Shown here: positions 16,405 through 33,150 of the stretch, in pieces
How positions within the stretch are numbered: the first letter of the stretch is position 1
Layout: each line of letters begins with the position of its first letter
Source: a virus
Lineage: Duplodnaviria > Heunggongvirae > Uroviricota > Caudoviricetes
IMG/VR virus record: IMGVR_UViG_2681813146_000002
Reading direction: 5' to 3' (one strand)
Length of the DNA: 47,946 nucleotides
Translations under genes and position numbers: made by a program
Notes under the pieces: model-generated
Databases searched by the model: none
The model's input: the letters and a program-made list of their open reading frames with translations, nothing else
Told to the model about the DNA's origin: nothing

Positions 16405-16418
16405 TCAGAACGAATGAT

Positions 16419-16447
16419 AAGCCCCTGTTGCAAAGGGGCTTTTTTGT
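16419..16447 (+). terminator. Rho-independent terminator after the toxin-antitoxin pair
   Basis: GCCCCTGTTGCAAAGGGGC hairpin followed by a T-run. Confidence 0.6.
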
Positions 16448-16450
16448 GCT

Positions 16451-16568
16451 CATAGAATTATATAATTATAGATTTATATAAAAAAGCGCTTTACGGGTGG
16501 GAAAAAATTTCCTAAGGTTATACCCGAAACCGAGCGATACCCGCCCTGGTTAAACCGGAGATAACCCG
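16451..16568 (+). promoter_or_regulatory. Conserved promoter/operator/leader cassette, copy A
   Basis: AT-rich palindrome, then TTTACG-N17-TAAGGT, then leader CCGAAACCGAGCGATACCCGCCCTGGTTAAACCGGAGATAACCCG before the ATG. Near-identical to copies at 25843 and 33034. Confidence 0.55.
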
Positions 16569-16949
16569 ATGAGCATGATTAAAATCCGCAAAGACGCTTT
16601 CCTTAAAATTCAAACTATCCTGGCTGGTTCTGTTGGCGTGATTTGCCGTTCTTCTTCAAGCCGCATCGATGACGGCTACGATGATGAGTATCGTGTGTCC
16701 TCGTGCGACGAGGCTTTAACCTGGCTGAAGGAGAATCAGGAACGTGCCCAGGTATATCTGGAAACAGAGAACGGCAATCAGATGTTGCGTATTAGCGGTC
16801 GTTATGGATTTGAAACTACATTCATGGCCTATTTTAATCAGGCTTACTTTGACAAGGAGTTGGCCTGGTACACTGATCGCATGAGCAAAAGCGAGCCAGC
16901 CCCGATTACACCGCCGAACAATAAACCATTTTTATTCCTCGTTAAGTAA
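16569..16949 (+). CDS. Hypothetical protein, cassette-driven accessory gene
   Basis: 126-aa ORF immediately after cassette copy A. Confidence 0.45.
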   Translation: MSMIKIRKDAFLKIQTILAGSVGVICRSSSSRIDDGYDDEYRVSSCDEALTWLKENQERAQVYLETENGNQMLRISGRYGFETTFMAYFNQAYFDKELAWYTDRMSKSEPAPITPPNNKPFLFLVK

Positions 16950-17012
16950 ACACAATGCGCAAAGTGTCATTTTGACACTTTGCGAGTGTTAATATTGTGC
17001 GAGGAGGGTGCT

Positions 17013-17285
17013 ATGACGGGTTATGAATTGAAATTATGGCGTCGTGGGATGAACTGGACGCAGGAGCGAGCCGCCGAAGAATTTGGGATATCGTTGGCTA
17101 CATATAAGCGATATGAGAAGGGGGAGCCGCCGAGGGTCATTGAGATGGCCATTCGCGTTCTGTCGTTTGACGATATGGTTAAGGATCTTTCACACCTTGA
17201 TAAAGATGCGATTCTGTTAAGGCTGCAAACCCTTGTATGGGAAAAGGTTAAAGTGTCGTCAGAATTGGAACAAGGGATCAAATGA
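17013..17285 (+). CDS. XRE-family HTH protein
   Basis: HTH WTQERAAEEFGISLATYKRYE. Start ATG 17013 after GAGGAGG. Confidence 0.5.
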   Translation: MTGYELKLWRRGMNWTQERAAEEFGISLATYKRYEKGEPPRVIEMAIRVLSFDDMVKDLSHLDKDAILLRLQTLVWEKVKVSSELEQGIK

Positions 17286-17336
17286 TCCTTTACGGATCGT
17301 TTTATGGTGGTGTAATGTAAGCGCCAGAAAGACAAA

Positions 17337-17360
17337 AACCGCCTTGCCGGGCGGTTTTCA
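17337..17360 (+). terminator. Rho-independent terminator
   Basis: AACCGCCTTGCCGGGCGGTTTT hairpin with a T-run. Confidence 0.55.
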
Positions 17361-17920
17361 GTCTGAAATTTAAATCTTGCTTGGTAGGCTGGATTTAAAA
17401 AGACACCTCTTGATTGGGGCGGCTTTCTTGCGTCTAAAGATAATCAAATCTTTTTGCGCCTGCAACCCCTTTTTTACTGGTGCCTGTTTCAGACTCACGC
17501 TCGCGTCGTTGTCTTTGCCACTTCGTTGGGTTCGGTGTTTTTGGGCGAAGTGGCGCGCGGGTATGCGTACAAGGGGAAAGTGTGCTGACGCAAGCCAGGA
17601 ACAGCGATCTAAACTAAGTCGAGTCTGAGAAAGGCAGGAGTGCGACAACTCGCCTGTGCTCTATGAGCAGAAGAAGGTATATCAGACGACCAATGGCATG
17701 ATTGTGGGCCACAGGGCGCACACGGCGGCGAAGCATTGGAAACGATGTGGAGCTATCTGGTGGCATGAGTTCCGGTACTCGATCTCGAGCTTTTTTTGAT
17801 GCTTTTGAGAAGGGGCCGGAACTCCGGTAAAGGGCACCCTGTATGGGGGGAGGGGGGGTTGTGTCTTAAGGAAGATCTAATACGATATTGCTTTACCCTT
17901 ATATCTAAAAGGAGATTTCT

Positions 17921-18556
17921 ATGGGGATGCTGGTGGCGTTTATTATTAGCCTGATTTTGTGTTTCTTCGTAGTTCGTGGCGCATATCGGAAACAATGTGC
18001 CTCGTCTTCTGGTGGTAAGTTCAAAGCTGTTTTAGTGAGTGGCTTTCTCGGGATTGCAACTTTTGTAGTTGTTAATACTCTTGCGGCTGTGACCTTGATC
18101 CCAGAAGACTCCAACACTGCGGCTACTACCGGAGCTGCTTTTGATGGTGTGACCGTAGATAAGTTTAAGAGGTTATATAATGATGACCTTGAAGGCATCG
18201 CTACATCAGGAAAAGCCACCTCCCCTATAAGAATTAAGTCAGTTAAACAAGGTAACAACACCGTTGAATTTGCCATCAATTCATCTGTTAACGGTCGAGC
18301 TAGAGTTGATAAGGATGGGAAGATTTCAGAGTTATTATGGCGAGTATCTAAGCCTAGCTCTGATTCCTTGCTTTCTATGGCCGTAGCTGTTGAAGTCTTG
18401 GATGCATCAAGTGATAGAGACACAGTGATCGCGCAGTTAGAGCAGATTGTTAAATCTGATACGCAGAAAGCTGAGTTTAAGACTAAGAGAGGCGAGTATT
18501 ACGTTTCTCGTGACAAATCAGGGCACGTGTCGCTACTGATTACACCGAAATATTAA
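17921..18556 (+). CDS. Membrane-anchored protein, candidate superinfection-exclusion or moron product
   Basis: 211 aa with two N-terminal hydrophobic helices and a Ser/Thr-rich soluble domain. Flanked by terminators. Confidence 0.4.
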   Translation: MGMLVAFIISLILCFFVVRGAYRKQCASSSGGKFKAVLVSGFLGIATFVVVNTLAAVTLIPEDSNTAATTGAAFDGVTVDKFKRLYNDDLEGIATSGKATSPIRIKSVKQGNNTVEFAINSSVNGRARVDKDGKISELLWRVSKPSSDSLLSMAVAVEVLDASSDRDTVIAQLEQIVKSDTQKAEFKTKRGEYYVSRDKSGHVSLLITPKY

Positions 18557-18566
18557 GAATTGAAGA

Positions 18567-18594
18567 AGCGCCCAAATCGGGCGCTTTGTTTTAT
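18567..18594. terminator. Bidirectional terminator between convergent genes
   Basis: AGCGCCCAAATCGGGCGCT hairpin with flanking T/A runs. Confidence 0.55.
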
Positions 18595-19733
18595 GGTTTT
18601 GCACCTGCGGCCAGTTTATCCGCAGATATCTTTATCAGTTCCTGTAGTGTCCTGGCTGGTAGGTTTGCATCCAGTACGCTGAGTATGCTGTTGTGATCTG
18701 CCTGGTCGACTACTTTGCCTGTCGGTGGTAGTAGCTTGAGCTGAGGATTCAGGTTTTCGTCAAAGCTGATCAGTGCTCTGGCGTTTCTGAGCAGATCAAG
18801 AAGTAAGGCTGATATCACATTTTCCTGAGTCATTGCTGGCAGATTTAGCGCCGCTTTGGTTTTCCCTGTTGCCTTGTCAAACTCCTTGATTAGTTTCTTC
18901 CTGTAGTTCGGTTCCGTTAATAGCCGATTATGCTCTGTTGCCGCGCGGATAATCGTTTTTTCCTGGTACAGTCGTTTAGCCAGATCACGCTCGTACTGTG
19001 TTTTTAACACGCTGCTGATAGCGTTAAAGGCTTCAATGTAGGCCAGCTTGATATCTTTCACGCCTGGACCGTCGATACTCTCCATGAGCAAGGTAAATCC
19101 GTCTTTTGTCATGCGATAGATTGTTATTTCGCGGTCGCTTCCTTCCAACGGTCGTTGCTCTTTAAAGAAATGACGCGCCGCAGCTGTGCGAGGAATGCGT
19201 AACGCATCGATGGCCATAACGATGGAATTGTTTGTGGTGCTGAATGCTTGGGCAACATCGGCTGAGGTTGTGAGTGGCTCGTTATTGCACACCTTAATGT
19301 AAAACATCGGTTTGGCGTTGAGCGTATCGACAACCTCACGAGCATTGTTTGGCGAGACGGTTACGGTCGCGGCCGTTTGCGCGTTCTGGTTGAAGTAGCA
19401 GTCTTCCAGCCGTTCGAATACATCCCACGCCTGATCGGTTTCGAGCATTTTAGCGTGACGTGCAGCCCCGCGTTCGGTCCAGAGAATTAGGGAGCGGGCA
19501 TTTTTACCAACTAACCCGATTGTTTCGGGTCTGTTCTTGAACTCGCGTAATTCGTTTTTTTCAATTTTAAAGTAATGCTTTCCGGCTACGAATCGCGTCG
19601 TGTTGTTCAGAAAGTTATCAGAAATGTTTTTGATTTTTGTTCCGTATAACTGCGCCAGAAGTTCACTAGTGATAACGGGGATCTGGTTATGCAGGATAGG
19701 CTGTAGGGTGTTAACGGTCGGAAGCGTTTTCAT
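18591..19733 (-). CDS. Antirepressor, Rha-family N-terminal domain with KilAC-like C-terminal region
   Basis: 380 aa. N-terminal region resembles phage regulatory protein Rha by recollection. Confidence 0.55.
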   Translation of the reverse strand: MKTLPTVNTLQPILHNQIPVITSELLAQLYGTKIKNISDNFLNNTTRFVAGKHYFKIEKNELREFKNRPETIGLVGKNARSLILWTERGAARHAKMLETDQAWDVFERLEDCYFNQNAQTAATVTVSPNNAREVVDTLNAKPMFYIKVCNNEPLTTSADVAQAFSTTNNSIVMAIDALRIPRTAAARHFFKEQRPLEGSDREITIYRMTKDGFTLLMESIDGPGVKDIKLAYIEAFNAISSVLKTQYERDLAKRLYQEKTIIRAATEHNRLLTEPNYRKKLIKEFDKATGKTKAALNLPAMTQENVISALLLDLLRNARALISFDENLNPQLKLLPPTGKVVDQADHNSILSVLDANLPARTLQELIKISADKLAAGAKP

Positions 19734-19921
19734 TTTGCACCTCCCATAACTACTTTGGTTACGAGGGAGATTTTTGCGTCAGAAACAGCGTTATCGTTGC
19801 TGGCGATGCGCATAGCTTCGCGCTCGATGATTTCAGCCAGGCGGAATTTATCGGCGTATGAGGCTTTCTTGAGAAGGATCTTTACGAGGTTGACGTAATA
19901 GTCATGGGGTAGGTTTGTCAT
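19730..19921 (-). CDS. Small protein upstream of and coupled to the antirepressor
   Basis: Start taken at the internal ATG after GGAG; the longer ORF extends to 19957. Stop overlaps the antirepressor start. Confidence 0.35.
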   Translation of the reverse strand: MTNLPHDYYVNLVKILLKKASYADKFRLAEIIEREAMRIASNDNAVSDAKISLVTKVVMGGAK

Positions 19922-20215
19922 TGTGATATCTCCAGTATATGGAACTATCACCGCCATTCGAGGCTAATCAAATGGTGGTGAGCCGTACAGGGTTAGCCTT
20001 ACCGGACACAATGACGAACCGGCGCGGATTTCTCCGCCCCTGTACGACCCACCATAATTTGGGCGTAACAGTGCTCTACGCATAAAAAAACCGCTAACGC
20101 GGTATGCGCCATCGTGTTATTCAGGAGGCTAATCCCGGCCGTAGATTTTGCTACGGCTCGGAAAGTGTCCACCAATGGCGCATTTATGTCAATACGGCGG
20201 GATTTTAACAGAGAC

Positions 20216-20232
20216 AACCACATAGTGTGGGT
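20216..20232. promoter_or_regulatory. Operator-like site AACCAC-ATAGT-GTGGGT upstream of the antirepressor operon
   Basis: Matches the AACCAC-N5-GTGGTT family with one mismatch. Confidence 0.4.
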
Positions 20233-20674
20233 TTATTGGTAGGCAGAAACAAAAAAACCGCCCTATTGAGGACGGTTCTTTCGTGCTGATCGGATTCGCG
20301 GTCCTTTCAGCATTACGTTGTTGTATAAACAACCACGCAAGCACAAGCAGCAAGTTAATTTTACCCAAAAGGTAATAATAGTCCACTATTATGCTTCATA
20401 AAATTGTGGTTCTTGTTGTGCCTGCAAACTCACAGATTGTGGGTAGGTTACTGATTTTGTGAAAATAAACGAGTTTTTTCGTTTAATTTCTTTCCTATAA
20501 CTAATCTTAAAATAATCGTAAAATACCTGTGGACCTTCCCGCCGATTCGCACCCGGGCACCGACTTTAGGGGAGGATTCTCCGTTGCCGTACATGCAAGC
20601 ACAAGCAGCCGTGCTTGCTCTCGCGTTGTTTTCGTCGGTGGGGATGCCGTGAAACGGCCTGTAAGGGCCATACA

Positions 20675-20797
20675 ATGAAAAAATACTGTATGTGTATTTT
20701 TATCGTTGTTACTGGAGCTTTGTTTACGCCACATGGGGAGGGTTGGAAGATTACTGATAACGCTCTGAATGTGACGATAAACATTAGCAGCAAGTAG
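20675..20797 (+). CDS. Small hydrophobic peptide (40 aa), candidate membrane toxin or moron peptide
   Basis: MKKYCMCIFIVVTGALFTPHGEGWKITDNALNVTINISSK after an AAGGG ribosome-binding site, followed at once by a strong terminator. No Hok motif. Confidence 0.3.
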   Translation: MKKYCMCIFIVVTGALFTPHGEGWKITDNALNVTINISSK

Positions 20798-20802
20798 CGA
20801 TT

Positions 20803-20826
20803 AGGCCCCTTCGGGGGCCTTTTTTA
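20803..20826 (+). terminator. Rho-independent terminator
   Basis: AGGCCCCTTCGGGGGCCT hairpin followed by TTTTTT. Confidence 0.65.
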
Positions 20827-21047
20827 TGGTTGAATTTAAACGCTGGAGCGCATTAAACCTTTCAGAACTGCTTCACGTACCCATTCTGGCCTGGTAGATA
20901 GCAGGGCAAATAAGCAACCAGCTTGCAGCCGTTTGAGGTCGGTTAGACGAGTTTTCAGTAACCGTGTATATTGTTGCTCGGACATAACAAATTCCCCTTG
21001 TTGTGTCGCGACGGCCAACAGTTGGCGCTGGAGGCCGTCACCTTCTC

Positions 21048-21296
21048 TTACTTCTGGTTGTATTGAGCCTTGAGTAACTCAAAAGATTTTGTCAGCACTT
21101 CTTTCAATGACATATCCATTGAGCTGGCGAACGTTTTGTACTCGCGTTTAAATTCAGGGTCGACGTTAAACGCCATTTGTGCCCCACCTGATTTGGTTCT
21201 GGTCGGCGTTTCAGTCGGGTCGAAAACCTGCGGTTGTTCGATTGATGGCGGTACGCCTTTGCTGTTCTTTTTCGGTGGTTTTGATGGTGCGGCCAT
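21048..21296 (-). CDS. Centromere-binding partition protein, ParG-like (ribbon-helix-helix)
   Basis: 82 aa with a disordered basic N-terminus and a C-terminal RHH-like segment. Immediately downstream of the ParA-like gene. Confidence 0.5.
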   Translation of the reverse strand: MAAPSKPPKKNSKGVPPSIEQPQVFDPTETPTRTKSGGAQMAFNVDPEFKREYKTFASSMDMSLKEVLTKSFELLKAQYNQK

Positions 21297-21339
21297 GTGT
21301 ATCCCCTTTTATATAAATCTATAAAACTATAATTATATA

Positions 21340-21993
21340 TTACGCGGCAGTAGTCAGAGCCTCAAGCTGATTGATAATCCCCTGGATAACATCGTCTGCC
21401 TTTTTGCGTGGCGCAACGTATGAGCACTCAATAAGGCTTAAGCCCTTATCCTGAGCTTTGCTCAGAGCTGGCTTGTGGGGAATGTACTTATCGACAACAA
21501 AGTATGGCGTATTAGCCAGGTACTCTTGGGCTTCAATATAGTCAGCTTCGTTTTCAGCCGCGCCGGAAAACACCATGCAAATTTTCTTGATTGGTACACC
21601 CTTTTTAACGATGCCGTGAGCTGTGTTAACGGTGGTTTCCAGGTCATCGGTAGAGAATCTGGTTGGCAAAATAACCATATCCAGAAATTCAGAGAGCTTC
21701 GGTACTGATTCAGATGCGTAGGCACCGCCATCGACGATAACCAGGTCGTATACTTCTGATTCGATGATTTTCTGGACTTGTGATGGTGTGCCGCACGGCT
21801 GCGCCGCGATTGCTGGTTCGATATTGTTGGCCATTCTGCGTTGTACCCAACGCGTTACCGTTCCGTTAAGCACATCCATATCGATCAGGCATACATTCCA
21901 GCCAGCCTTTGCATAAGCAACTGCTAAAGCACGGGCAATTGTTGATTTGGTTACGCCGCCTTTTCCGTTGAAAATACCTACAGAGATAGTCAT
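21340..21993 (-). CDS. parA: Partition ATPase, ParA/ParF-like
   Basis: Deviant Walker A GKGGVTKST near the N-terminus. Start taken at MTISV; the longer ORF extends to 22008. Confidence 0.7.
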   Translation of the reverse strand: MTISVGIFNGKGGVTKSTIARALAVAYAKAGWNVCLIDMDVLNGTVTRWVQRRMANNIEPAIAAQPCGTPSQVQKIIESEVYDLVIVDGGAYASESVPKLSEFLDMVILPTRFSTDDLETTVNTAHGIVKKGVPIKKICMVFSGAAENEADYIEAQEYLANTPYFVVDKYIPHKPALSKAQDKGLSLIECSYVAPRKKADDVIQGIINQLEALTTAA

Positions 21994-22020
21994 TTGTCGA
22001 GACTCCATGTGTTTGGTTAT

Positions 22021-22118
22021 ATAATTCTATAAATCTATATTTATAGAACGAGGTAAGCATAACCAACTTTTTGGCGGATGAAAAGCGTTTTATATAATTA
22101 TATAAATCTATAATCATA
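22021..22118. repeat. AT-rich palindromic repeat units upstream of the ParA-like gene (candidate centromere/operator)
   Basis: Repeated TATAATTCTATAAATCTATATTTATAGA and TATATAATTATATAAATCTATAATCATATA units. A related unit lies at about 21303..21332 upstream of the ParG-like gene. Confidence 0.5.
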
Positions 22119-22143
22119 TAAGCGGGCGTTAGCCCGCTTGCAG

Positions 22144-22518
22144 TCAGAGGTCAGCTATCGTTGATATCAGTTGATTTGCTAGCTGTCGCTGTTTACGTGA
22201 GAGGGTTAGAGCTGCTTCTGAGCGGTCGCTAAGAGGGGTATTCTCATCGAGAATCATGAGGCATACAGAAATGATAGCTCTGTTATATGCCATCAATGAC
22301 TGGCACAGCTTTGATACAGAAGGCACATCGTATTGTAAGGCTGTTTTGAGGCAGGCTTTTTGCTCGTAAGCAAGATGAAGGGTAGATGATATCCAGTCGA
22401 TATCTTTCTCATTATCAATGATTTGGCATAACATACACTCAATCGCTATGTTCAACGCTTGGATTTCGATTCCAGCAGTGATCAGAGTTTCGTTTTTATT
22501 GGCTGTATGTAATTCCAT
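22144..22518 (-). CDS. Hypothetical protein between the repressor gene and the partition genes
   Basis: 124-aa ORF. No recognisable motif. Confidence 0.35.
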   Translation of the reverse strand: MELHTANKNETLITAGIEIQALNIAIECMLCQIIDNEKDIDWISSTLHLAYEQKACLKTALQYDVPSVSKLCQSLMAYNRAIISVCLMILDENTPLSDRSEAALTLSRKQRQLANQLISTIADL

Positions 22519-22610
22519 GCGTAGCCTCTTTTATACTTTCACATGTTGTCAAAACCACAAAATGTGGTTTTTTTGAGCGTAGAAATGCACGGCTTTCGCC
22601 GTGCTGTGTA

Positions 22611-23267
22611 TCATAACCAGTTGACAACACTAACTACGCGGCCCAGAACTTTATAACGCTTAAATTCCTCGTTATTCAGATGCTTAGTGTTCATTTCAGC
22701 ATCCCTTTCGGTTGACAGCATAACAGCATTGTCACCCGGTATGACTCTACAGTGCCTCAAAACAACCAGGCCATTTCTGTCTTCAAGGGCATAGATCCCC
22801 TCATGAATCTCTGTATCGTCTGTATCAATCAGGACTTGGGAGCCAGGGGATATTGTTGGTGACATTAACTCATCGTTGCTCTGGAGAACTGACAGAGACG
22901 ATGGGTTGATGTTCTTGCTTCGTAGAATCTCCTGTTCTATCGCCAGCACTGGCTTTTCTCCGGCGTGCGATGCTATGTCATTTTTTATAGCTACAAGCCC
23001 AGGAATAACAGGAGCGTTAGTATTCTGGGGTGGGAACGGGTTATCTGTTAAGCACGCGATATAAGGCGCTGATGCTTTCAGGGCGTGCGCGATTTTCTTG
23101 ATGGCAGGTATAGATGGTTGTCTTAATCCGGCCTCATAGTTCTGCAAGGTGCTTAAGCCTATTCCAGTGACTTGCTGGAGATCTCCGGCAGTCATGCCGG
23201 ATTGTTTCCGTAGAGTCTGAATGCGCAGACCTATTTCTTTCTTGATGTTCTCGTCGTTGCTTTTCAT
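22611..23267 (-). CDS. Prophage repressor, CI-like (XRE HTH plus S24 LexA-type C-terminal domain)
   Basis: N-terminal HTH IGLRIQTLRKQSGMTAGDLQQVTGIGLSTLQNYE. C-terminal S24-like region. Divergent from a Cro-like gene with palindromes in between. Confidence 0.65.
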   Translation of the reverse strand: MKSNDENIKKEIGLRIQTLRKQSGMTAGDLQQVTGIGLSTLQNYEAGLRQPSIPAIKKIAHALKASAPYIACLTDNPFPPQNTNAPVIPGLVAIKNDIASHAGEKPVLAIEQEILRSKNINPSSLSVLQSNDELMSPTISPGSQVLIDTDDTEIHEGIYALEDRNGLVVLRHCRVIPGDNAVMLSTERDAEMNTKHLNNEEFKRYKVLGRVVSVVNWL

Positions 23268-23299
23268 GTCTCATCAATCGTGAATGGTGGGTTATTTAT

Positions 23300-23425
23300 A
23301 CATTACCACATTTAGTGGTTTTCACATGGTAAGACGAGAGGTGGACCACAAATAGAAGGTTATTTTTTGTTTTGCCCATTGAAAAACTCACGATATGTGG
23401 TTTTAATACCACATATCGTGGTTTT
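23300..23425. promoter_or_regulatory. Divergent immunity promoter/operator region
   Basis: Operator-like sites 23304..23320 and 23407..23423, plus a perfect 12-bp inverted repeat CACGATATGTGG/CCACATATCGTG at 23389..23420. A further site lies at 22553..22569. Confidence 0.55.
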
Positions 23426-23441
23426 AACTGGAGTTCGTTAA

Positions 23442-23936
23442 ATGACCTTTCAGGAGTGGGTTGACGAAAATGGAGGCCAAATTGGTGTTGCCAGAAAGTT
23501 TGGCTTTACGTCATCACTGATTGGTGCCTGGTATCGCTTCGAGAGATTCCCTCGTGCGGATAACCTGACGCTGCTGGTGGCGTATTCGGAAGGCCGGATT
23601 AACGTCCAGCAATGGGCGGCAGATTTTGCCGAACGTCAGCGCCAGCGTAGCGATGGCACATCGGTTCGGCAGAACAAGATCAAAGGGAATCTCCCTGTTA
23701 ACTGCTTATCAAGGCTGAAAGCGGTTTTCTCTGAGTTGGGGATGCCTGCGGAGCGTTGCAATCTACGCGGTCCGCGATTCATTGCTCGCTGGAAACACTC
23801 ACACGTAACCGTTTCAGAGGTTCGTGATGCGATTACCGTGCTGGAGCTTAAGAATAAAGATTCCAGCGATATCGAGCTGATTCATAAGGAGATTAGCAAC
23901 GCCCGGCGTTCAGCACTTGGGAGGCTTGAGGAATGA
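23442..23936 (+). CDS. Cro-like regulator (YdaS / DUF1019-like HTH)
   Basis: N-terminus FQEWVDENGGQIGVARKFGFTSSLIGAWY resembles YdaS-type Cro proteins. Divergent from the repressor gene. Confidence 0.5.
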   Translation: MTFQEWVDENGGQIGVARKFGFTSSLIGAWYRFERFPRADNLTLLVAYSEGRINVQQWAADFAERQRQRSDGTSVRQNKIKGNLPVNCLSRLKAVFSELGMPAERCNLRGPRFIARWKHSHVTVSEVRDAITVLELKNKDSSDIELIHKEISNARRSALGRLEE

Positions 23937-25411: not shown

Positions 25412-25414
25412 ACA

Positions 25415-25792
25415 GTGAGACGCGATCTGGATAGCTTGTTTGAGCTATGGGCGCTGTGGGTGCGCAATGGCTGCAACGCCCGTAGCGGTTTCGCGTCGAT
25501 GTTAGAAATGATGATGGTTACGCGCTGCCAGTTTACCGGAGGGGGCGGCGCACCAAATGACTCACTGGAAACCAGTATCGAGGGAGCGGTGACGGCCCTC
25601 ACGGTAGTTGATGAGACTGCGGCGCTGGTTGTCCGAATTGAATACGGGGCGTGGGAGATTCGGGGCCTCGACATAAATGCACCGCATATTGATAAAGCCC
25701 ACGCCCTTTCTCTTAGTCTCAGACAGTATCGCCGGAAGCTGGCAAAAGCCAGGGCGTATGTTGTCGACTATTTGAAAAAGCGAAGAGAGTAA
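25415..25792 (+). CDS. Hypothetical protein, possibly an antiterminator-like regulator
   Basis: 125-aa ORF. Weak recollection-based resemblance only. Confidence 0.3.
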   Translation: MRRDLDSLFELWALWVRNGCNARSGFASMLEMMMVTRCQFTGGGGAPNDSLETSIEGAVTALTVVDETAALVVRIEYGAWEIRGLDINAPHIDKAHALSLSLRQYRRKLAKARAYVVDYLKKRRE

Positions 25793-25842
25793 AAGTGTCA
25801 TTTTGAGCTTTTTGATGGTGTGTAGACATCGGGAACATCGAA

Positions 25843-25960
25843 AATCTATAAATATATAATTATATATTTATATAAAAAGTGCTTTACAGGTGGGAAAAAA
25901 TTTCCTAAGGTTATACCCGAAACCGAGCGATACCCGCCCTGGTTAAACCGGAGAAATCTG
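25843..25960 (+). promoter_or_regulatory. Conserved promoter/operator/leader cassette, copy B
   Basis: Same AT-rich palindrome, TTTACA-N17-TAAGGT and leader as copy A, ending at the ATG of the next gene. Confidence 0.55.
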
Positions 25961-27028
25961 ATGAATAAACAAGTAATTATTTCTGACTGGATCAACAACC
26001 CTAACAGCCTGTTAAGCACTGATACTGGCTACCTATTACGCCATGTTAATGGTCGTATGGTCAAAAGCGATGAGCACGAAACCTTTTTCTTTGTTGAAGA
26101 CGATGGGCGCATCTATGAGGATGGTTACTCTTATGAAGCCCAAACTGGTTGTATCCCTGCGGAGCTGGTGGACGTAACAGAAGATCTGCGCAAAGCATGG
26201 CTTGAACAGCAGCAGCGCGGAGATGATTACGTAAACACCTATCAGGAACGCCAGAACGCGCGTCTTGCCCGATATATTGCTCGTGCAGAAAAAGCCAGAA
26301 AAGAAGGTGCGGTAGCGCATAAGCGAGCGCATGACCTGTTGGATGTGATCCCGTTAGGCCAGCCGATTTTAGTTGACCATTATAGCGCGAAAGGCCATCG
26401 CCGCCGTTTGTCTAAAGCTGATGCGTTATTCAGAAAAGCGTTTGTTGAATGCGAAAGTAAAGCATCACACTACGAGAGCAAAGCCGCAGGTGTTGGTCGT
26501 AATGGAATTTCGTCTGATGATCCTGATGCGCTATTTAAGTTGCTTCGTAAGCTGCAAGGCTGCATGAAGTCACACGTCAAAATGAAGGCCGCAAATAAGG
26601 CCATTCGCAAATACAAAAAAGACCATTTACAGCAGCTTTCTGCATTAATCGATCTCAGGTTTACAGAAAGCGAAGCCAAAGAGTTACTGGCCGGAGATTT
26701 CTGTGGGCGCATCGGATTCCCTTCATACGCACTGAGCAACAATAACGCCGAAATCAAACGACTACAGAGCCGTATTAAGGAGCTTGAATCGGTCAAGTCT
26801 GTAACAGGAGCACAGCGCGAAGAATACGACGGCTTTTCTATGGAGATAGATCCAGAGGATAACCGCATCCTGTTTTATTTCCCTGGCAAACCAGAGGCAA
26901 ACATTCGTTCGCTGCTTAAATCACGCGCCTTTAAGTGGAGTCCAACCCGTAATGCATGGGTTCGCAAGATTACTCCAAACGCTCTGGCTGATGCCCGATA
27001 TCTGAAAGAATCGCTATTGAAAGCCTGA
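25961..27028 (+). CDS. Hypothetical protein, possibly DUF3560-containing
   Basis: 355 aa with motif GQPILVDHYSAKGHRRR. Cassette-driven. Confidence 0.4.
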   Translation: MNKQVIISDWINNPNSLLSTDTGYLLRHVNGRMVKSDEHETFFFVEDDGRIYEDGYSYEAQTGCIPAELVDVTEDLRKAWLEQQQRGDDYVNTYQERQNARLARYIARAEKARKEGAVAHKRAHDLLDVIPLGQPILVDHYSAKGHRRRLSKADALFRKAFVECESKASHYESKAAGVGRNGISSDDPDALFKLLRKLQGCMKSHVKMKAANKAIRKYKKDHLQQLSALIDLRFTESEAKELLAGDFCGRIGFPSYALSNNNAEIKRLQSRIKELESVKSVTGAQREEYDGFSMEIDPEDNRILFYFPGKPEANIRSLLKSRAFKWSPTRNAWVRKITPNALADARYLKESLLKA

Positions 27029-27105
27029 CAGTAAGCCTACGGCGGGATGTCTCCTGCCGTATATAGAATTATATATTTATATAAATGTATAAGGACGCCT
27101 CGACA

Positions 27106-27387
27106 ATGAAACGCAAAATTATTAACCCCCAAGATGTGATTAATTTCCTGACCGATCACCCATGTTCAAAAGTGGACGTAATCGCGGAGCACATTGGTGT
27201 GTCGCAGAACTCTATGCGTTGCAGACTGAGAAGCATGGTTGCCGAAGGACAGATAACAACCAGGAAAATAAATGGTTGCCTGTACTACTCCGCTAAACCG
27301 GAATTGCCATTTGGCATGAATCCTAACTCCATGTTGTTTAACACCTTATTAGCCAAAGTTAAGCCGTTGAGAGGGGCTGTGGCATGA
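27106..27387 (+). CDS. Small winged-helix-like DNA-binding protein
   Basis: Start taken at MKRKIINPQ after AAGGA; the longer ORF starts 27085. Preceded by an AT-rich palindrome at about 27061..27090. Confidence 0.4.
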   Translation: MKRKIINPQDVINFLTDHPCSKVDVIAEHIGVSQNSMRCRLRSMVAEGQITTRKINGCLYYSAKPELPFGMNPNSMLFNTLLAKVKPLRGAVA

Positions 27388-27749
27388 GCATCAAAACCCA
27401 TACCGGAATAATCATCACCATTGATGGTGAGAAAAGAGTGAAGTTGCGCGAAACGCCGACAACCTGGTGTGTTGGTCCGAAAGAAACATATCGCAAGGAA
27501 GATGGCCGTCGTTGTGGGGCACCACTTTCCCGCCGTCGCCTCCTTTTGAGCACGATAAAACCTATCGGGCAGGTTGAGCAACCAACGACTCCGGTAACGA
27601 AGATTTCAGACAAGAGTCTGGCAAACCTGATCGCCGATGCGGACAAGGTGCTGGAGCGGAACACCCCCGTTGCAGATGAGGAATGGTGGCAGGATTTCCG
27701 AGCCGCAATGCTAGAGCTTCAGGAACGTCGTCGGGAGGAGTTGAAGTGA
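27384..27749 (+). CDS. Hypothetical protein
   Basis: 121-aa ORF. Confidence 0.35.
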   Translation: MSIKTHTGIIITIDGEKRVKLRETPTTWCVGPKETYRKEDGRRCGAPLSRRRLLLSTIKPIGQVEQPTTPVTKISDKSLANLIADADKVLERNTPVADEEWWQDFRAAMLELQERRREELK

Positions 27750-27937
27750 GCAAGAAAAATGCCGGATGGGTCAGGCCAATGAAGGCGAATAAACATCATT
27801 ATTTTAATGAAGGTGAAGTAACCAGCATTTGCGGCCGTTGGATGTATTTTGGTGATTACCGTGAGCCAGACACTTTTGAGAGTCCTGATGATTGCGTGTC
27901 TTGTCGCCGGAAATTGAACAAGGTGGCTTCTAAATGA
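27746..27937 (+). CDS. Small Cys-containing protein
   Basis: GTG start overlapping the upstream stop, after GGAGG. Cys pairs CGRW and CVSC. Confidence 0.3.
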   Translation: MSKKNAGWVRPMKANKHHYFNEGEVTSICGRWMYFGDYREPDTFESPDDCVSCRRKLNKVASK

Positions 27938-28551
27938 AAGAACGTGGTGTTGTTTTTAATGACGATATGGTTAGGGCCATCCTCGAAGGAAGGAAGACGC
28001 AGACTCGCCGACCTGTAAAAAATGTCAGGGCCGATAACTGCCTGGTTATCCGTAAACCGACAAAGAAACGCAATGGTGTCTATACCCACGTTATGGATGC
28101 ACCGGAACATGGTTTATGCCCGTTCGGTAACGTTGGTGATCGCATATGGGTCCGTGAAACATTCAACGCTTTTTGGCTGGATAACGATGTCATTCAGGAA
28201 ATCAAAGATGGTGTCTCTCTGGCTTCTGAACTGTGTGATTACAAGGCTGATTACTCAGATAGTAGCAAGCCAGCTGAGGGCTGGACCCCGTCGATTCACA
28301 TGCCACGTTGGGCCAGCCGCATTCTGTTGGAAATAACCGACGTGCGTGTGGAACGGCTGCATGACATGAGCGAGGCAGATGCTAAAGCTGAAGGCGCATC
28401 TCCGGCGACGTACAAAATTACACCGCCGGAAGCTGTTTATCGTGTTGGCTTTGGTGATATCTGGCGCGGTATTTACGGGCAAGAGAACTGGCTATCTAAC
28501 CCGTGGGTATGGGTAATTGAGTTTAAGCGTATTCAGGAGGGCAACCAGTGA
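27934..28551 (+). CDS. ASCH-domain-like protein
   Basis: N-terminal MVRAILEGRKTQTRR resembles the ASCH signature as I recall it from YqfB. Confidence 0.4.
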   Translation: MKERGVVFNDDMVRAILEGRKTQTRRPVKNVRADNCLVIRKPTKKRNGVYTHVMDAPEHGLCPFGNVGDRIWVRETFNAFWLDNDVIQEIKDGVSLASELCDYKADYSDSSKPAEGWTPSIHMPRWASRILLEITDVRVERLHDMSEADAKAEGASPATYKITPPEAVYRVGFGDIWRGIYGQENWLSNPWVWVIEFKRIQEGNQ

Positions 28552-29111
28552 GTAACCAATGGCGACCAGATATTTGCCCTATAACTGGACGTGCATTTTT
28601 CATGTGGATTGAGCATCCGGAATTGGGAAATGTACCGACGTACGGTGGCCCATTAGACAGTTACACCATTCCAACAAAGGACGGTGACGGTGAGTTTTCA
28701 TGTGAGCGTTACGATCATGATTTCGGCGGTTGGGTAGAAAGCGAATGTCTTGGGTTATATCTGATTGATGATAAAGAGCAATGCAGAGTCTACGAACTGG
28801 AGGAACGCGTTAAGGAGCTGGAAGCGCGGGAAATAAAACCAGCCAAAGGTGAAGTTCTTGTCGTTGTATCTGGTTTTACTGGTTGCGGAAAAAGCGCCAT
28901 TGCCGGGGAAATAGAAATTGCGATGAAGGCTATTGGTGTACCGGTTCAGTGGACTAATGGCGATGCAGAAAAGCGCATGACTGGTGCTGACTGGCTGACA
29001 GCAATTGAGATGTACAAACCAACTGTGCGCATCGTGGAAGTTAATGTGCCACGCGTCGCTGGCATTCGCATCAAAGGAGACGCAGGAGAGCAAAACGATG
29101 AAAAACCGTAA
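28548..29111 (+). CDS. Hypothetical protein
   Basis: 187-aa ORF. Confidence 0.35.
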   Translation: MSNQWRPDICPITGRAFFMWIEHPELGNVPTYGGPLDSYTIPTKDGDGEFSCERYDHDFGGWVESECLGLYLIDDKEQCRVYELEERVKELEAREIKPAKGEVLVVVSGFTGCGKSAIAGEIEIAMKAIGVPVQWTNGDAEKRMTGADWLTAIEMYKPTVRIVEVNVPRVAGIRIKGDAGEQNDEKP

Positions 29112-29286
29112 AGCAAAGATTCTGTTAGTTCGTAGAAACGCTCCTGGCGTCTGGCAGTGGGTGAGACTCAGCAACCGACGGATGGGGTTGATGAAATATT
29201 ACGGGATGATGGATTGTGGTTTTTGCAAAAAGCCCAGCGCGGCGCAAAACCGCTGGAAAAACCACTTGCGCACTAAAGGAGAGTGA
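29098..29286 (+). CDS. Small basic protein
   Basis: Start ATG 29098 after GGAGAG. Overlaps the upstream stop. Confidence 0.25.
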   Translation: MKNRKAKILLVRRNAPGVWQWVRLSNRRMGLMKYYGMMDCGFCKKPSAAQNRWKNHLRTKGE

Positions 29287-29497
29287 TATGTCTATTGCCG
29301 CAAGTTACACCATGCATCTCTATTGTGACTGCCGCCAGTGTACGGAAGGTGTATATCCAGTGCCAGACTTCGGTGAGTATATCGGTACGTCATGGTCTGG
29401 TTGTGCAAAAGAGGCCCGTAAAGACGGGTGGCGAATAAGCAAAGACAAAACACGTGCTTTTGCGCCCGGGCATAAAATTTTGAGGATTAACAAATGA
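29287..29497 (+). CDS. Small Cys-rich protein
   Basis: ATG 29287 after AAGGAGAG. Cys cluster CDCRQC. Confidence 0.3.
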
Positions 29498-29907
29498 CAA
29501 CTTTTACCGACGACGACAAAGGACTTATTAAAGAAATCAGAGAGCGAATCGGCAGCCTGGACGTGCGAGACAATATTGAGCGCCGGGCTTATGAAATAGC
29601 GTTAGCCTCGCTGGAAGCAGAACCGATAGCGTGGGAATGCGGCGAAAACATAATCCTGTTTAATCCTGACACAGTTGAAGCATACGCAAAACGTGCGGAG
29701 ATAACACCTAAACCTCTATTCGCCGCCCCGCCAGTGCCGGTAGTGCCGGATGATGGTCGCGAAAAGTTCGAAGCACTTGTCAGGTTTCATGCGGGTGATA
29801 AAAACCATGAAACATTATTGCTTCGTGCCAACGAAGGTATGAATTACCAGGACCCGAATGTTGATCTGGCGTGGATATTCTGGAAGTCCAGTCGTGAGCA
29901 TATATAA
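29494..29907 (+). CDS. Hypothetical protein
   Basis: 137-aa ORF. Confidence 0.35.
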   Translation: MTTFTDDDKGLIKEIRERIGSLDVRDNIERRAYEIALASLEAEPIAWECGENIILFNPDTVEAYAKRAEITPKPLFAAPPVPVVPDDGREKFEALVRFHAGDKNHETLLLRANEGMNYQDPNVDLAWIFWKSSREHI

Positions 29908-30291
29908 GCTGTAGTGAGAAGCCATGCGATTACGAGCAGTATTCAGATATTCAGAGCGGGTAATGAGGCACATACAACCGAAAACATGGCAGAAATTGGA
30001 TTCTGTGGGAGTTAAGTTGGAGAAGATTACTCAACTTAAGCAGTGGCATATCGGCGAATATTATGGAAGTCCTGGCCGGGATGTTCGTTTGGTAAAAAGT
30101 TGAGTATTGTTTTTTTATTGATCAATTAACCACGATTTGAAGGTTTTTTATGGGAAAACCTTGTTTTAGGTGGTAACTGGGTGTAGTGTTTCATTTAACG
30201 TAGTAAAACTGCGTTAAGCGATTACCGCGTAATTTGTTGCTTTATGAAGCCCTGCCTTTTTCGGCGGGGCTTTTTTTTAACGAGGATTTCA

Positions 30292-30687
30292 ATGTCAGCA
30301 GAACCAATTTCCGGTACGGCCGTTGCTGCTGGTGGCCTGATGGGTGCCAGCGTTTTTGGTATTGCAACTGGTATTGATTACGGCGTTGTATTCGGGGCAT
30401 TTGCTGGCGCTGTTTTCTATGTTGCTACAGCGGTGAATATTAGCCGTCTCAAGCTGATTGGCTATTTCTTTACATCGTTCATTGTTGGAGTGATTGGAGC
30501 GCCGTTAGTTGGCTCATTTCTTGCCAAATGGACCAGCTACAACGATCGTCCTCTGGATGCGCTTGGTGCGGTTATTGTGGCTGCATTGACAATTAAAATC
30601 CTCACGTTCGTAAACAGCCAGGATCTCGGTAGCATCTTTGGAATGCTTTCCCGCTTACGTGGAGGGGGTTCAAATGGTAAGCAGTGA
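30292..30687 (+). CDS. Holin-like membrane protein
   Basis: 132 aa with several hydrophobic helices. Start ATG 30292 after GAGGA. First gene of the lysis cassette, after a terminator-like hairpin. Confidence 0.5.
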   Translation: MSAEPISGTAVAAGGLMGASVFGIATGIDYGVVFGAFAGAVFYVATAVNISRLKLIGYFFTSFIVGVIGAPLVGSFLAKWTSYNDRPLDALGAVIVAALTIKILTFVNSQDLGSIFGMLSRLRGGGSNGKQ

Positions 30688-30970
30688 CCCGTCAGCACTG
30701 ATTAATGCGGTGCTTTGCACAGTAATAGTAATGGCGCTGATGTTTTATCGACGGAAAGACTCAAGGCATCGTCCATTTGTTTCCTTTCTGGCTTATATCT
30801 ACGTCATTGTATACGCCAATGTTCCCTTCCGTTATGTGTTTGGTCTTTATCAAGAATCCCATTGGCTGGTGGTTATTGGAAATCTGATTATCTGCATCGT
30901 TGTTCTGTATTTCAGGGGCAATCTGGCGCGGATAGTTGACGCATTAGGATTTAATCATGACCAAAGATGA
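30674..30970 (+). CDS. Second lysis-cassette membrane protein (holin/antiholin-like)
   Basis: 98 aa, hydrophobic. Start ATG 30674 after GGAGGGGG. Confidence 0.45.
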   Translation: MVSSDPSALINAVLCTVIVMALMFYRRKDSRHRPFVSFLAYIYVIVYANVPFRYVFGLYQESHWLVVIGNLIICIVVLYFRGNLARIVDALGFNHDQR

Positions 30971-31499
30971 GATTTTTAACAGCATTCTTGGAAAAGAGGG
31001 CGGCTATGTGGATCACCCTGACGACAAGGGAGGCCCAACAAAGTGGGGCATTACTCAGAACACTGCCCGTGCTCATGGATACCGTGGCGATATGCGAGAT
31101 TTAACCCGCGAACAGGCACTGGAAATCCTTGAGGCTGATTACTGGTACGGACCACGCTTTGATCAGGTGGCCGCATTATCCTCTGATATTGCCGCAGAGC
31201 TGTGTGACACGGGGGTGAACATGGGGCCAACAGTGGCGTCAAAAATGCTTCAACGCTGGCTGAATGTGTTCAACCTGCGCGGGAAGCTGTATCCCGATTT
31301 GGATGCAGACGGACGAATCGGTCCACGTACCATTAATGCGCTGCGTGCTTATCTTGGGAATCGGGGAAAAGACGGCGAACGTGTGATGCTGACGTCGCTG
31401 AACTGTACGCAGGGCGAACGCTATCTGGAGTTGGCGGAGAAGCGCGAGGCTAATGAGTCGTTTGTCTACGGCTGGATGAAAGAGCGAGTGGTGGTATGA
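30957..31499 (+). CDS. Endolysin, glycoside hydrolase family 108-like with C-terminal peptidoglycan-binding region
   Basis: N-terminal EGGYVDHPDDKGGPTKWGIT is GH108-like by recollection. Confidence 0.65.
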   Translation: MTKDEIFNSILGKEGGYVDHPDDKGGPTKWGITQNTARAHGYRGDMRDLTREQALEILEADYWYGPRFDQVAALSSDIAAELCDTGVNMGPTVASKMLQRWLNVFNLRGKLYPDLDADGRIGPRTINALRAYLGNRGKDGERVMLTSLNCTQGERYLELAEKREANESFVYGWMKERVVV

Positions 31500-31774
31500 C
31501 TGGTTTGAAGGCCGTTTTGTCATTTATTGGCACAATTGTATTGGTTGCATTTGGCGCGTTTGGTTTTGGTCGTATGAAGGGGCGAGAAAAGGCCGAAGAT
31601 GAAGCTGAAAAGCAGCGCATTAATGAGAATGCAGCCGCCGTAAAAGCCACTGCGGAGCGGCGTATAGAAGTGACAAAAGAGGTGGGGAATGTACAGCAGA
31701 GTGTTAACCATATGGCTGATGACGATGTTGATCGCGAGCTGCGGGAGTCGTGGAAGCGTCCCGGTGGTGGTTGA
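31496..31774 (+). CDS. Inner-membrane spanin (Rz-like)
   Basis: N-terminal transmembrane helix then a charged coiled-coil region. Follows the endolysin. Confidence 0.55.
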   Translation: MTGLKAVLSFIGTIVLVAFGAFGFGRMKGREKAEDEAEKQRINENAAAVKATAERRIEVTKEVGNVQQSVNHMADDDVDRELRESWKRPGGG

Positions 31775-31898
31775 TACCGCCTGTGATTGGGTAAAGCCCA
31801 TCTACCTGACTGATCACGACATCGATGTTATGGACCGCCAGACAAAGAAAGATATTCTGGCTCATAACATGGCATGGGAAATCAACTGCCGAAAGTAA
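31719..31898 (+). CDS. Outer-membrane lipoprotein spanin (Rz1-like)
   Basis: Lipobox LIASC in MTMLIASCGS. Overlaps the Rz-like gene out of frame. Confidence 0.5.
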   Translation: MTMLIASCGSRGSVPVVVDTACDWVKPIYLTDHDIDVMDRQTKKDILAHNMAWEINCRK

Positions 31899-32067
31899 TA
31901 TATATTTCTATAATTATATAAATATATAGTTACAACATTCTATGCGCTTTTCTCATGGGCGCACGCATCAACCATGTTTGTCTGATATGCCGCCGCGCCC
32001 AAAAATCCTGAATTTATTGGCTGGGATTTTCGTGCGCGGCGCCACACCAGACAAACAAATCAAATAT

Positions 32068-32143
32068 GGCCCCTTAGCTCAGTGGTTAGAGCAGGCGACT
32101 CATAATCGCACGGTCATCGGTTCAAATCCGGTAGGGGCCACCA
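32068..32143 (+). tRNA. tRNA with anticodon CAT (Met, or Ile2 if lysidine-modified), CCA encoded
   Basis: Manual cloverleaf: acceptor GGCCCCT/AGGGGCC, D-arm GCTC..GAGC, anticodon loop CTCATAA, T-arm with TTCAAAT loop, discriminator A plus CCA. Confidence 0.8.
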
Positions 32144-32450
32144 ATTCACTCTCACACATAAAGATAAGCGCGGTGGAGTTACTTCTTCGTGCTCATCTTT
32201 ATGCGTGCCTGGTGCGCATTTCGGGCGAACGTGGGGCTAAGTTACAGGCAGGGCCTGTTATCCGCAAAGGGGTAAAAGCTGGAGCGGCACGGAACTGTAG
32301 CCGTGTTACCAAAACAGCGTTGTCGGGCGATATCCGGCACACAACAGGCAAGGGCATTAATCAGTCTGGTTAGTGCCCTTTTCGTTGTGTTTGCTGTAGA
32401 GCTGGCCAGCGTTATGACTGCCGGAGATAAGCGCCGGAGACACAACTAAC

Positions 32451-33038
32451 ATGGAGGCAATTGCATTGTTTAATCTGATTTATGCAGATCCCCCCTGGGA
32501 ATACAAAGACAAGTGTAAGGATGGGAATCGTGGCGCTGGTTTTAAGTATCCAACGATGAAAGCTGAGGATATTGCTCGTATTCCTGTCTGGCAGCTTGCT
32601 AATCCTGAATCGTGTTTGTTGGCCATGTGGTGGGTTCCGACTCAGCCAGAAGAAGCGTTGCTGGTGGTGAAAGCATGGGGATTCAGGCTGATGACCATGA
32701 AGGGCTTCACATGGAACAAATGTGGTAGCCGACAACCAGATAAGCTGGTGATGGGGATGGGGCATATGACTCGTGCAAACAGTGAAGATTGCTTGTTTGC
32801 GGTAAAAGGCAAACTGCCGACCCGCCTTGATGCGGGGATCATTCAGTCGTTTACATCGCCTCGTCTGGAGCATTCTCGGAAGCCTGATGTGGTTCGTGAC
32901 AAGCTGGTAAGGCTGTTAGGTGATGTTCCCCGTATTGAGCTGTTTGCTCGCGGTGATTTACCTGATGGCTGGCATGGCTGGGGCAACCAGTGCAATGGAG
33001 GTATCCAGTTGCATGATGCTCTCTGGCAAGTGGCATAG
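32451..33038 (+). CDS. MT-A70-family N6-adenine DNA methyltransferase
   Basis: DPPW catalytic motif in LIYADPPWEY. Size 195 aa. Confidence 0.65.
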   Translation: MEAIALFNLIYADPPWEYKDKCKDGNRGAGFKYPTMKAEDIARIPVWQLANPESCLLAMWWVPTQPEEALLVVKAWGFRLMTMKGFTWNKCGSRQPDKLVMGMGHMTRANSEDCLFAVKGKLPTRLDAGIIQSFTSPRLEHSRKPDVVRDKLVRLLGDVPRIELFARGDLPDGWHGWGNQCNGGIQLHDALWQVA

Positions 33039-33150
33039 AATTATATAATTATATATTTATATAAAAAGCGCTTTACAGGTGGGAAAAAATTTCCTATGGT
33101 TATACCCGAAACCGAGCGATACCCGCCCTGGTTAAACCGGAGATAACCCG
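33034..33150 (+). promoter_or_regulatory. Conserved promoter/operator/leader cassette, copy C
   Basis: Near-identical to copies A and B (TATGGT in place of TAAGGT). Begins at the methyltransferase stop codon. Confidence 0.55.

Follow-up and report, generated by a model that had tools for sequence, protein, structure and literature searches.

Dispersed four-unit repeat arrays of a 48-kb phage-plasmid as candidate centromeres and operators of a predicted ribbon-helix-helix partition protein

A ribbon-helix-helix (RHH) centromere-binding protein that doubles as a regulator of multiple promoters is already known. In the inc18 plasmid pSM19035, the RHH ParB protein omega uses six parS sites, each with 7-10 heptads, that coincide in part with the promoters of copS, delta and omega, and it activates ParA only on four or more contiguous repeats (PMC9499535). 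This omega/delta/parS system is the closest known counterpart of the one described here, i.e., a set of eight repeat arrays in the DNA of a tailed virus (Caudoviricetes; IMG/VR record IMGVR_UViG_2681813146_000002, 47,946 nt, called the window at its full length) together with a small ParA and an 82-aa protein encoded directly downstream of it. In both systems, the partner of a small Walker-type ParA is a small RHH protein with a flexible N-terminal tail (the RHH fold being predicted for the window), both have several sites per replicon, and in both the sites are arrays of short contiguous repeats with one dimer per repeat, the latter being our proposal for the window. Furthermore, omega sites overlap promoters, as predicted here, and one protein acts as centromere binder and global regulator, as we propose. 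All eight window arrays reach at least four repeats, i.e., they have exactly four units and thereby match omega's experimentally defined minimum, and four of them flank predicted promoters of par and non-par genes. On the other hand, the window repeat measures 8 bp instead of 7, a site holds four units instead of 7-10, and membership in the omega family is not detectable. The window system belongs to Gram-negative bacteria and their phages, and its putative targets include genes of phage type, the surroundings of a tRNA gene and, for one relative, an operon for a type IV secretion system (T4SS), in contrast to the copy-control and toxin-antitoxin genes targeted by omega.

Next in likeness is ParF/ParG/parH of TP228. 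Here, too, a small ParA is followed by a protein of ~76-82 aa with a disordered tail and an RHH domain (predicted for the window), and ParG autoregulates its operon, which is also what we propose. The differences are that TP228 has a single upstream site region and the window eight dispersed sites, that the window protein lies outside the Pfam ParG family and that its ParA is distant from ParF (weak match to 4dzz, E=3e-4). According to PMC3130281, parH consists of 4-bp boxes interspersed with AT-rich spacers.

An initial annotation of the window had compared the repeats with phage-plasmid N15, where partition-protein sites are scattered through promoter regions. The comparison holds insofar as both are prophage-plasmids whose (candidate) centromere sites are dispersed over the genome instead of forming one cluster. 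However, the N15 system (SopA/SopB) is of type Ia, with a large helix-turn-helix (HTH) ParB that spreads and four dispersed, GC-rich inverted repeats of 16 bp, while the window has a 217-aa ParA without HTH, an 82-aa RHH-like partner, tandem units and no HTH ParB as partition partner. Its ParB/Srx-domain genes lie far from parA and correspond to ParB/Srx-domain and methyltransferase-domain proteins in the annotation of relatives. Given a type Ia HTH ParB on inverted repeats there and a type Ib-like RHH protein here, N15 is a functional parallel and not a member of the same family.

Two further systems share single features. KorB of the IncP plasmid RK2 is a partition protein with about a dozen OB operators across the plasmid, through which many operons are regulated; it differs in being an HTH-type ParB dependent on cytidine triphosphate that acts at single palindromes and often at a distance. 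An 8-bp period is found in parH and its operator, where 4-bp spacers result in this effective spacing, and in the sites of MetJ, an RHH protein that places one dimer on each 8-bp metbox and binds 2-5 tandem units cooperatively. MetJ differs in being a chromosomal metabolic repressor with a corepressor and without a partition role.

Repeat arrays of the window

The initial annotation had listed an AT-rich palindrome at seven intergenic, promoter-proximal loci upstream of gene starts. Searching for the 16-mer TTATATAATTATATAA with up to 2 mismatches yields 15 overlapping matches, compared to 0.07 expected from dinucleotide shuffles. Read in register, these matches resolve into eight arrays dispersed over 16.6 kb (Table 1), each made of exactly four tandem 8-bp units (32 bp) with ordinary sequence on either side. 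The unit follows WT(A/C)TA(T/G)AW. Its commonest and consensus form, TTATATAA, is palindromic; the variants TTCTATAA and TTATAGAA are reverse complements of each other, i.e., units are present in both orientations.

A position weight matrix (PWM) of four units assigns 38-45 bits to the eight arrays. No other site in the 47.9 kb exceeds -0.3, and the maximum over 100 shuffles is 15.6. When the PWM is built from the three arrays of the par locus alone, it still finds the other five, above every shuffle. With regard to coding sequence, we used a greedy set of open reading frames (ORFs) amounting to 90% of the window: real coding sequence contains none of the arrays, and contacts are limited to stop codons or spurious ORF extensions.

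The repeated AT-rich motif is thus real, since this genome-wide scan separates the eight arrays from everything else, and it occurs at the places first listed. The form and the surroundings had to be corrected, i.e., there are eight tandem arrays instead of seven copies of one long palindrome, and all are intergenic, but the array s7 precedes a tRNA-Met gene and not a protein gene. Furthermore, two copies had been placed so as to flank the ParA-like and ParG-like genes, while the par operon has three, and the downstream side of the ParG-like gene is free of them. Promoter proximity does not hold throughout either, which is reflected in two classes of arrays. Class A (s1, s4, s5, s8) ends 5-8 nt upstream of a predicted -35 hexamer, while class B (s2, s3, s6) ends beside a ribosome-binding site. 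Array s7 belongs to neither and has no recognisable promoter; the ORF 31942-32373 next to it is probably spurious because the tRNA-Met gene lies within it.

Arrays s1, s5 and s8 form the first 32 bp of a cassette of ~115 bp that is present in three copies ahead of three unrelated genes (126-aa, DUF3560 and 89-aa). Its layout is array, TTTAC(G/A), 17 nt, TA(A/T)GGT and a leader of ~50 nt ending in AAACCGGAGATAACCCGATG. Only the s8 promoter passes our consensus scan, such that the cassette and parA promoters are to be taken as predictions. The leader was also considered as a known or well-structured RNA. This was rejected, as it has no Rfam match and its consensus fold reaches just -3.4 kcal/mol.

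Two side observations concern these contexts in a Serratia relative (element L006). It carries cassettes at 3635-3755, 5409-5530 and 13071-13190 in which the final 20 nt of the leader (AAACCGGAGATAACCCGATG) are identical and the rest differs. A second translation-start context, GGA(G/C)NCTCGACA(A)ATG, follows class B arrays in the window at 21993-22016 (parA) and 27093-27108 (the gene at 27106) and is kept in the Serratia element near 9010 and 14093.

Table 1. Repeat arrays and neighbouring features in window coordinates; promoters are predicted.
Feature	Position	Strand	Remarks
higBA terminator	16419-16441		precedes array s1
array s1	16450..16481	+	TCATAGAA TTATATAA TTATAGAT TTATATAA; about -75 to -44 of cassette promoter 1
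cassette 1	16482..16568	+	predicted promoter TTTACG-17 nt-TAAGGT; conserved leader ending AAACCGGAGATAACCCGATG
126-aa gene	16569-16949		downstream of cassette 1
82-aa centromere-binding-protein candidate	21048..21296	-	43 nt after parA
array s2	21309..21340	-	between parA stop codon and ribosome-binding site of 82-aa gene
parA	21340..21993	-	217-aa deviant Walker-A ATPase without N-terminal DNA-binding domain
array s3	22017..22048	-	about +1 to +33 of predicted parA promoter, reaching GGAGTCTCGACAAATG; 23 nt before parA ATG
predicted parA promoter	22056..22084	-	TTTTCA-17 nt-TATGCT; read from the sequence, not called by the promoter scan
array s4	22090..22121	-	about -72 to -41 of parA promoter; preceded by hairpin ending the 124-aa gene
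array s5	25844..25875	+	upstream of cassette promoter 2
cassette 2	25876..25960	+	promoter and leader
DUF3560 gene	25961-27028		follows cassette 2
array s6	27061..27092	+	abuts ribosome-binding site GGACGCCTCGACAATG of gene starting 27106 (93 aa, MarR-like PHROG)
array s7	31898..31929	+	just after lysis cassette; 138 nt upstream of tRNA-Met
tRNA-Met (CAT) gene	32068-32143	+
array s8	33033..33064	+	upstream of cassette promoter 3; first unit overlaps stop codon of MT-A70 methylase gene
cassette 3	33065..33150	+	promoter TTTACA-17 nt-TATGGT and leader
89-aa gene	33151-33420		follows cassette 3

The par module and its arrays in other lineages

The window ParA contains the motif KGGVTKS, matches the Pfam families CbiA, ParA and MipZ and has no HTH. 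A small ParA without HTH, a small gene directly downstream and short tandem repeats beside the operon are the marks of type Ib partition loci, and all three are found here. Scanning genome contigs with the ParA alignment returned generic Walker-A ATPases only.

The 82-aa protein starts with a basic, disordered N-tail (MAAPSKPPKKNSKGVPP), followed by a putative beta-strand (QMAFNV) and two helices. Its family shows the pattern MA..KPP.KK..KG.PP at the basic N-terminus and then LNFKV..EF+REFK.FA...DMSM.ELL..FELYK. In the AlphaFold monomer model (mean predicted local distance difference test score, pLDDT, of 65), residues 1-40 are disordered and helices span 47-59 and 62-79. The model would fit the monomer of an RHH protein in which dimerisation is required for the strand to form. 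A word-indexed homology search with this sequence returned relatives of at least 79% identity only. An exhaustive HMMER search yielded 62 matches at E<=0.001, mostly relatives of 74-90 aa; the few long proteins among them match in a low-complexity N-terminal region only. A profile search with the family extends to 550 matches, of which distant ones pass the threshold of Pfam RHH_10, and hhalign against ParG (sequence checked against PDB entry 1p94) aligns the whole RHH domain with P=1.5e-4. In every context examined, i.e., in fetched contexts or annotated plasmid records, family members (74-90 aa) directly follow a ParA.

We compared ten other lineages with such a ParA/RHH pair, covering phages, phage-plasmids and plasmids. 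Arrays of four 8-bp units are found at the par promoter in every lineage examined, and the unit sequence is lineage-specific (TTAAAGAA, TTCGTTAA, TTAACGCA, TTCACAGG). In a Salmonella phage-plasmid whose RHH protein is 89-91% identical, eight arrays with the unit of the window occupy syntenic positions. In a Serratia phage-plasmid (RHH 44-50% identical) the layout of the window is kept with a different unit, ATCTTTAA/TTAAATAA. Here, a PWM from the three par arrays alone picks up five dispersed arrays, which score 40-44 bits (null maximum 17.9), and three of these precede a conserved promoter and a leader with the AAACCGGAGATAACCCGATG end. The third case, pR11-698-3 (L101, NZ_CP107158.1), is an unrelated conjugative plasmid of 24 kb whose ParA and RHH protein are ~45% and 39% identical to those of the window. 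It has arrays at the equivalents of s2 and s3 and two more four-unit arrays in intergenic gaps of its T4SS operon (9962-9993 and 11737-11768), one of them directly before the virB10 ribosome-binding site. Given these positions, its partition protein may also gate conjugation genes.

Eight further contexts comprise the phage contigs L102, L103, L104 and L108 (two with P2-type tail genes), L109 with a Mu-type baseplate gene, a Halomonas plasmid of 66% GC (L105), a Lewinella plasmid (L106) and a plasmid contig with a MobA/MobL relaxase (L110). All eight have the RHH gene directly after a ParA of ~214 aa and a four-unit 8-bp array upstream of the -35 hexamer, and all except L108 have another array that abuts the parA ribosome-binding site. 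Most also show a third array, either at the junction of parA and the RHH gene or shortly behind the latter; none is found there in L102 or L109. The units are TTCGTTAA, TTCTTTAA, TTAACGCA, TTCCGTTA and TTCACAGG. PWMs derived from the par arrays only detect up to four extra arrays per 12-20-kb sample; the sole extra site of the Halomonas plasmid is weaker (24 bits versus 50-56 for its par arrays). The arrays of this plasmid are built of TTAACGCA, and those of L110 (5022-5053, 5145-5176, 6085-6116 and 7177-7208; RHH beta-strand VHLNFTV) use the non-AT-rich unit TTCACAGG. Since such versions exist, the arrays are not generic AT-rich DNA. In the 34-kb Y. pestis plasmid pS96127, which has a distant ParA/RHH module, no AT-rich arrays are found upstream of parA.

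Dispersed arrays always carry the unit of their own par locus. This is also reflected in the unit centres, which agree between par and dispersed arrays in 6/6 lineages tallied, i.e., ATAT/CTAT in E. coli, Salmonella and pR11, CTTT/ATTT in Serratia and L103, and CGTT in L102. ParA and the RHH protein are the only components that all compared replicons share.

Function of the arrays and competing explanations

The arrays share one architecture and covary with the par module. As the architecture of four 8-bp units recurs at par and par-only PWMs recover the dispersed arrays, the arrays are most likely sites of the RHH protein with centromere and operator function. We consider it probable that the RHH protein is the binder, and the complete explanation, in which RHH-bound arrays serve as type Ib-like centromeres and as operators, is probable as well on the comparative evidence. 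Each 32-bp array would be a platform for four RHH dimers, one per 8-bp unit, and the RHH protein and the small Walker-type ParA would together make up a type Ib-like partition system. As centromeres, the coated arrays would engage nucleoid-bound ParA-ATP via the conserved basic N-terminal tail. As operators, two arrays that bracket the parA core promoter (-72/-41 and +1/+33) would cause autorepression and a third would precede the RHH gene; three further arrays would act at -75/-44 of the repeated promoter-leader cassette, ahead of three unrelated genes; and protein bound at s6 and s7, in intergenic gaps, could stop transcripts from reading through or shut off a local promoter. Several plasmid and phage transcription units would thereby respond jointly to the level of the partition protein.

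RHH binding, repression in place of activation and centromere activity of all eight arrays are what we infer from these data. The most secure part is parA autorepression via the bracketing arrays; repression at the three cassette promoters and a read-through block at class B sites are plausible, and the arrays may also activate. The initial annotation had proposed that partition-protein sites at scattered, promoter-proximal places couple segregation to gene expression. The comparative evidence favours this core of the proposal, which has to be separated from the N15 model and from the notion of a promoter at every array.

Several results weigh against the explanation. The cassette promoters are weak consensus matches, of which 1/3 passes the scan. 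The AlphaFold monomer model of the 82-aa protein has low confidence, and a Foldseek comparison with the PDB gave nothing meaningful. The window protein matches no Pfam family, i.e., at E<=0.1 neither it nor the corresponding Serratia or pR11 proteins match an entry, ParG family PF09274 included, and there is no Pfam or PDB match to omega. The ParG match of the family is weak in that the hhalign probability is 51% and the PDB profile E-value 0.76. Given the weak profile match and the missing Pfam match, the protein is ParG-like and omega-like in architecture, and membership in neither family is demonstrable. Furthermore, the unit type follows neither overall RHH similarity nor a simple beta-strand code: the pR11 RHH protein, 39% identical, goes with TATA-type units, while the closer Serratia protein has TTT-type ones, and a Lys-44 protein (L108) is found with mostly TTT-type units. 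PWMs of neighbouring unit types also cross-detect one another. Finally, the HigA antitoxin is 91% identical between the window (15758-16404) and pR11-698-3 (21332-21978), which makes it a co-travelling alternative binder, i.e., a confounder, for the TATA-type elements. A residue-to-unit code of the beta-strand (Gln-40 with TATA, Lys/Arg-44 with CG) was tried and failed on L108 and L109.

The HigA identity leads to the likeliest of the rival explanations, namely that the arrays are operators for another co-travelling protein (the HigA-like HTH antitoxin, the 124-aa protein or the CI-like repressor) and unrelated to partition. HigA is shared at this identity by two independent TATA-type backbones whose RHH proteins are only 39% identical, and the 124-aa gene is syntenic in the phage-plasmids of E. 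coli, Salmonella and Serratia. However, the four-unit architecture around parA is retained in lineages with HicAB, BrnTA or no visible toxin-antitoxin pair, the pR11, Halomonas, Lewinella and L110 plasmids lack the 124-aa gene and any CI, the CI-like repressor has candidate operators of its own (ACCAC-N6-GTGGT, clustered between cI and the divergent gene), and the higBA promoter region has no array. We therefore hold this explanation to be improbable. The HigA identity next to ~45% for ParA and 39% for the RHH protein suggests, on sequence grounds, a recent toxin-antitoxin exchange beside old, diverged par modules.

The position and composition of the class A arrays would also suit elements that boost or silence promoters independently of a dedicated protein or via host factors (UP elements, curved DNA, nucleation by H-NS, IHF or Fis). 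These four arrays occupy about -75 to -41, the zone of UP elements and of contacts by the C-terminal domain of the alpha subunit (alpha-CTD), are 90-100% A+T and have an A-tract behind them; in addition, perfect TATAAT hexamers occur in E. coli-type arrays. Against this stands the strict four-unit 8-bp register with no intermediates in 48 kb. The remaining four arrays do not precede a promoter (parA start, two ribosome-binding sites, tRNA gene), the unit sequence varies between elements of related hosts, and the TTCACAGG units of L110 and the TTAACGCA units of the 66%-GC plasmid are not those of generic AT-rich elements, which together make this explanation very unlikely.

With regard to the cassette, its threefold occurrence before unrelated genes and the many megablast match ends at ~16451 and ~33155, i.e., at the outer edges of cassettes 1 and 3, could mean that arrays and the 115-bp cassette are mainly recombination joints for module swaps among related phage-plasmids, with protein binding being incidental. 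The breakpoint pattern was not confirmed, as the one relative inspected (p853EC2) retains the flanking toxin-antitoxin genes, and arrays without cassette exist at par and inside operons of unrelated plasmids. Joints as the main role are thus a remote prospect, and a role in recombination would not exclude operator and centromere function. Equally remote is an action as RNA, in which AU-rich leaders would enhance translation via ribosomal protein S1 or control it: s2, s3, s6 and their counterparts elsewhere would be part of the transcript and have a Shine-Dalgarno sequence 0-23 nt behind them, but four arrays lie upstream of promoters and hence outside the mRNA, arrays built of TTCACAGG or TTAACGCA lack an AU-rich composition, and the cassette leader has the poor fold and the lack of Rfam matches reported above.

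The element, its relatives and the scope of the system

Window positions 1-95 are identical to 47852-47946, from which we conclude a complete circular phage-plasmid of ~47.85 kb with an assembly overlap. It encodes a contractile-tail virion, a lysis cassette, a CI-like repressor, a RepA-like initiator, a HigBA toxin-antitoxin pair and ParA. A megablast query with window 16000-34000 finds 97-98% identity over most of the region to non-mobilizable plasmids of ~48 kb from E. coli, E. fergusonii and Klebsiella; the Yersinia phages vB_YpM_39, 41 and 44 are comparably close, and the 82-aa protein also matches a plasmid of E. coli ATCC 25922 (tblastn). Elements of this ~48-kb family are common in clinical E. 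coli, Salmonella and Klebsiella. An assignment to the pSLy3 group was rejected, as pSLy3 belongs to the SSU5 supergroup.

Further repeats and regulatory features were recorded along the element. Three 42-nt coding repeats with 120-nt spacing lie at 3913-4194 within a 930-aa ORF (1853-4645), and an 85-nt coding repeat of 74% identity occurs at 9921-10005 (792-aa ORF 8979-11357) and 11792-11876 (ORF 11645-12577). Rfam matches above the gathering score are C4 antisense RNA, isrK and ryfA at 19971-20059 (-), 20084-20157 (-) and 20529-20825 (+), just upstream of an ORF6N/Rha antirepressor gene (18591-19733), a region that looks like the P1-type immI (c4-ant) immunity module. Palindromes ACCAC-N6-GTGGT are found at 13264, 20218, 22555, 23306 and 23409 (also at about 23380). 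Three of them lie close together in the stretch that separates the CI-like repressor gene from the divergent early operon; of the others, one is found past cI, one ahead of the c4/ant-like region and one ahead of the RepA-like gene (13417-14295). Judged by these positions, they are likely candidate CI operators, which would place replication and antirepressor under CI control.

A bolder and doubtful extension of the partition-protein explanation is that the RHH protein provides a second, copy-number-sensing layer of immunity, in which the arrays gate transcription and the family would represent a widespread, so far unrecognised class of partition-coupled global regulators with rapidly evolving 8-bp specificity. 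Arrays at the cassette promoters and in gaps would stand ahead of the replication-type, post-lysis and pre-late blocks of genes. A change of gene programme would then follow when plasmid loss, over-replication or superinfection dilutes or titrates the protein, and the same family would act likewise in P2-like phages and inside conjugation operons.

Returning to the arrays as centromeres and operators of the RHH protein, a literature search for the motif, the names of the Yersinia phages and phage-plasmids combined with RHH partition returned no description of the protein family, of arrays of four 8-bp units or of their dispersal. New are thus the protein family, the format of four 8-bp units, the fact that each lineage has its own unit, and the occurrence of such a system in phages and phage-plasmids of Gram-negative bacteria and in a conjugation operon. 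A phage-plasmid has to keep its maintenance as a plasmid coordinated with its phage gene programmes, and for very few elements is it known how this is achieved. In this regard the family is a clean and testable case, with eight sites of identical format and one small candidate protein, and its natural specificity variants (TATA, TTT, CGT and CACAGG units, the TTCACAGG of L110 being one such variant) are usable for swaps. If the explanation is true, an unannotated RHH ParB family and its recognition architecture would be defined, the annotation of partition loci would improve, and orthogonal protein/site pairs would become available for synthetic biology. The omega-type logic, in which the centromere is the operator, would then extend beyond Firmicute plasmids and hold for phages, phage-plasmids and conjugative plasmids of Gram-negative bacteria as well.

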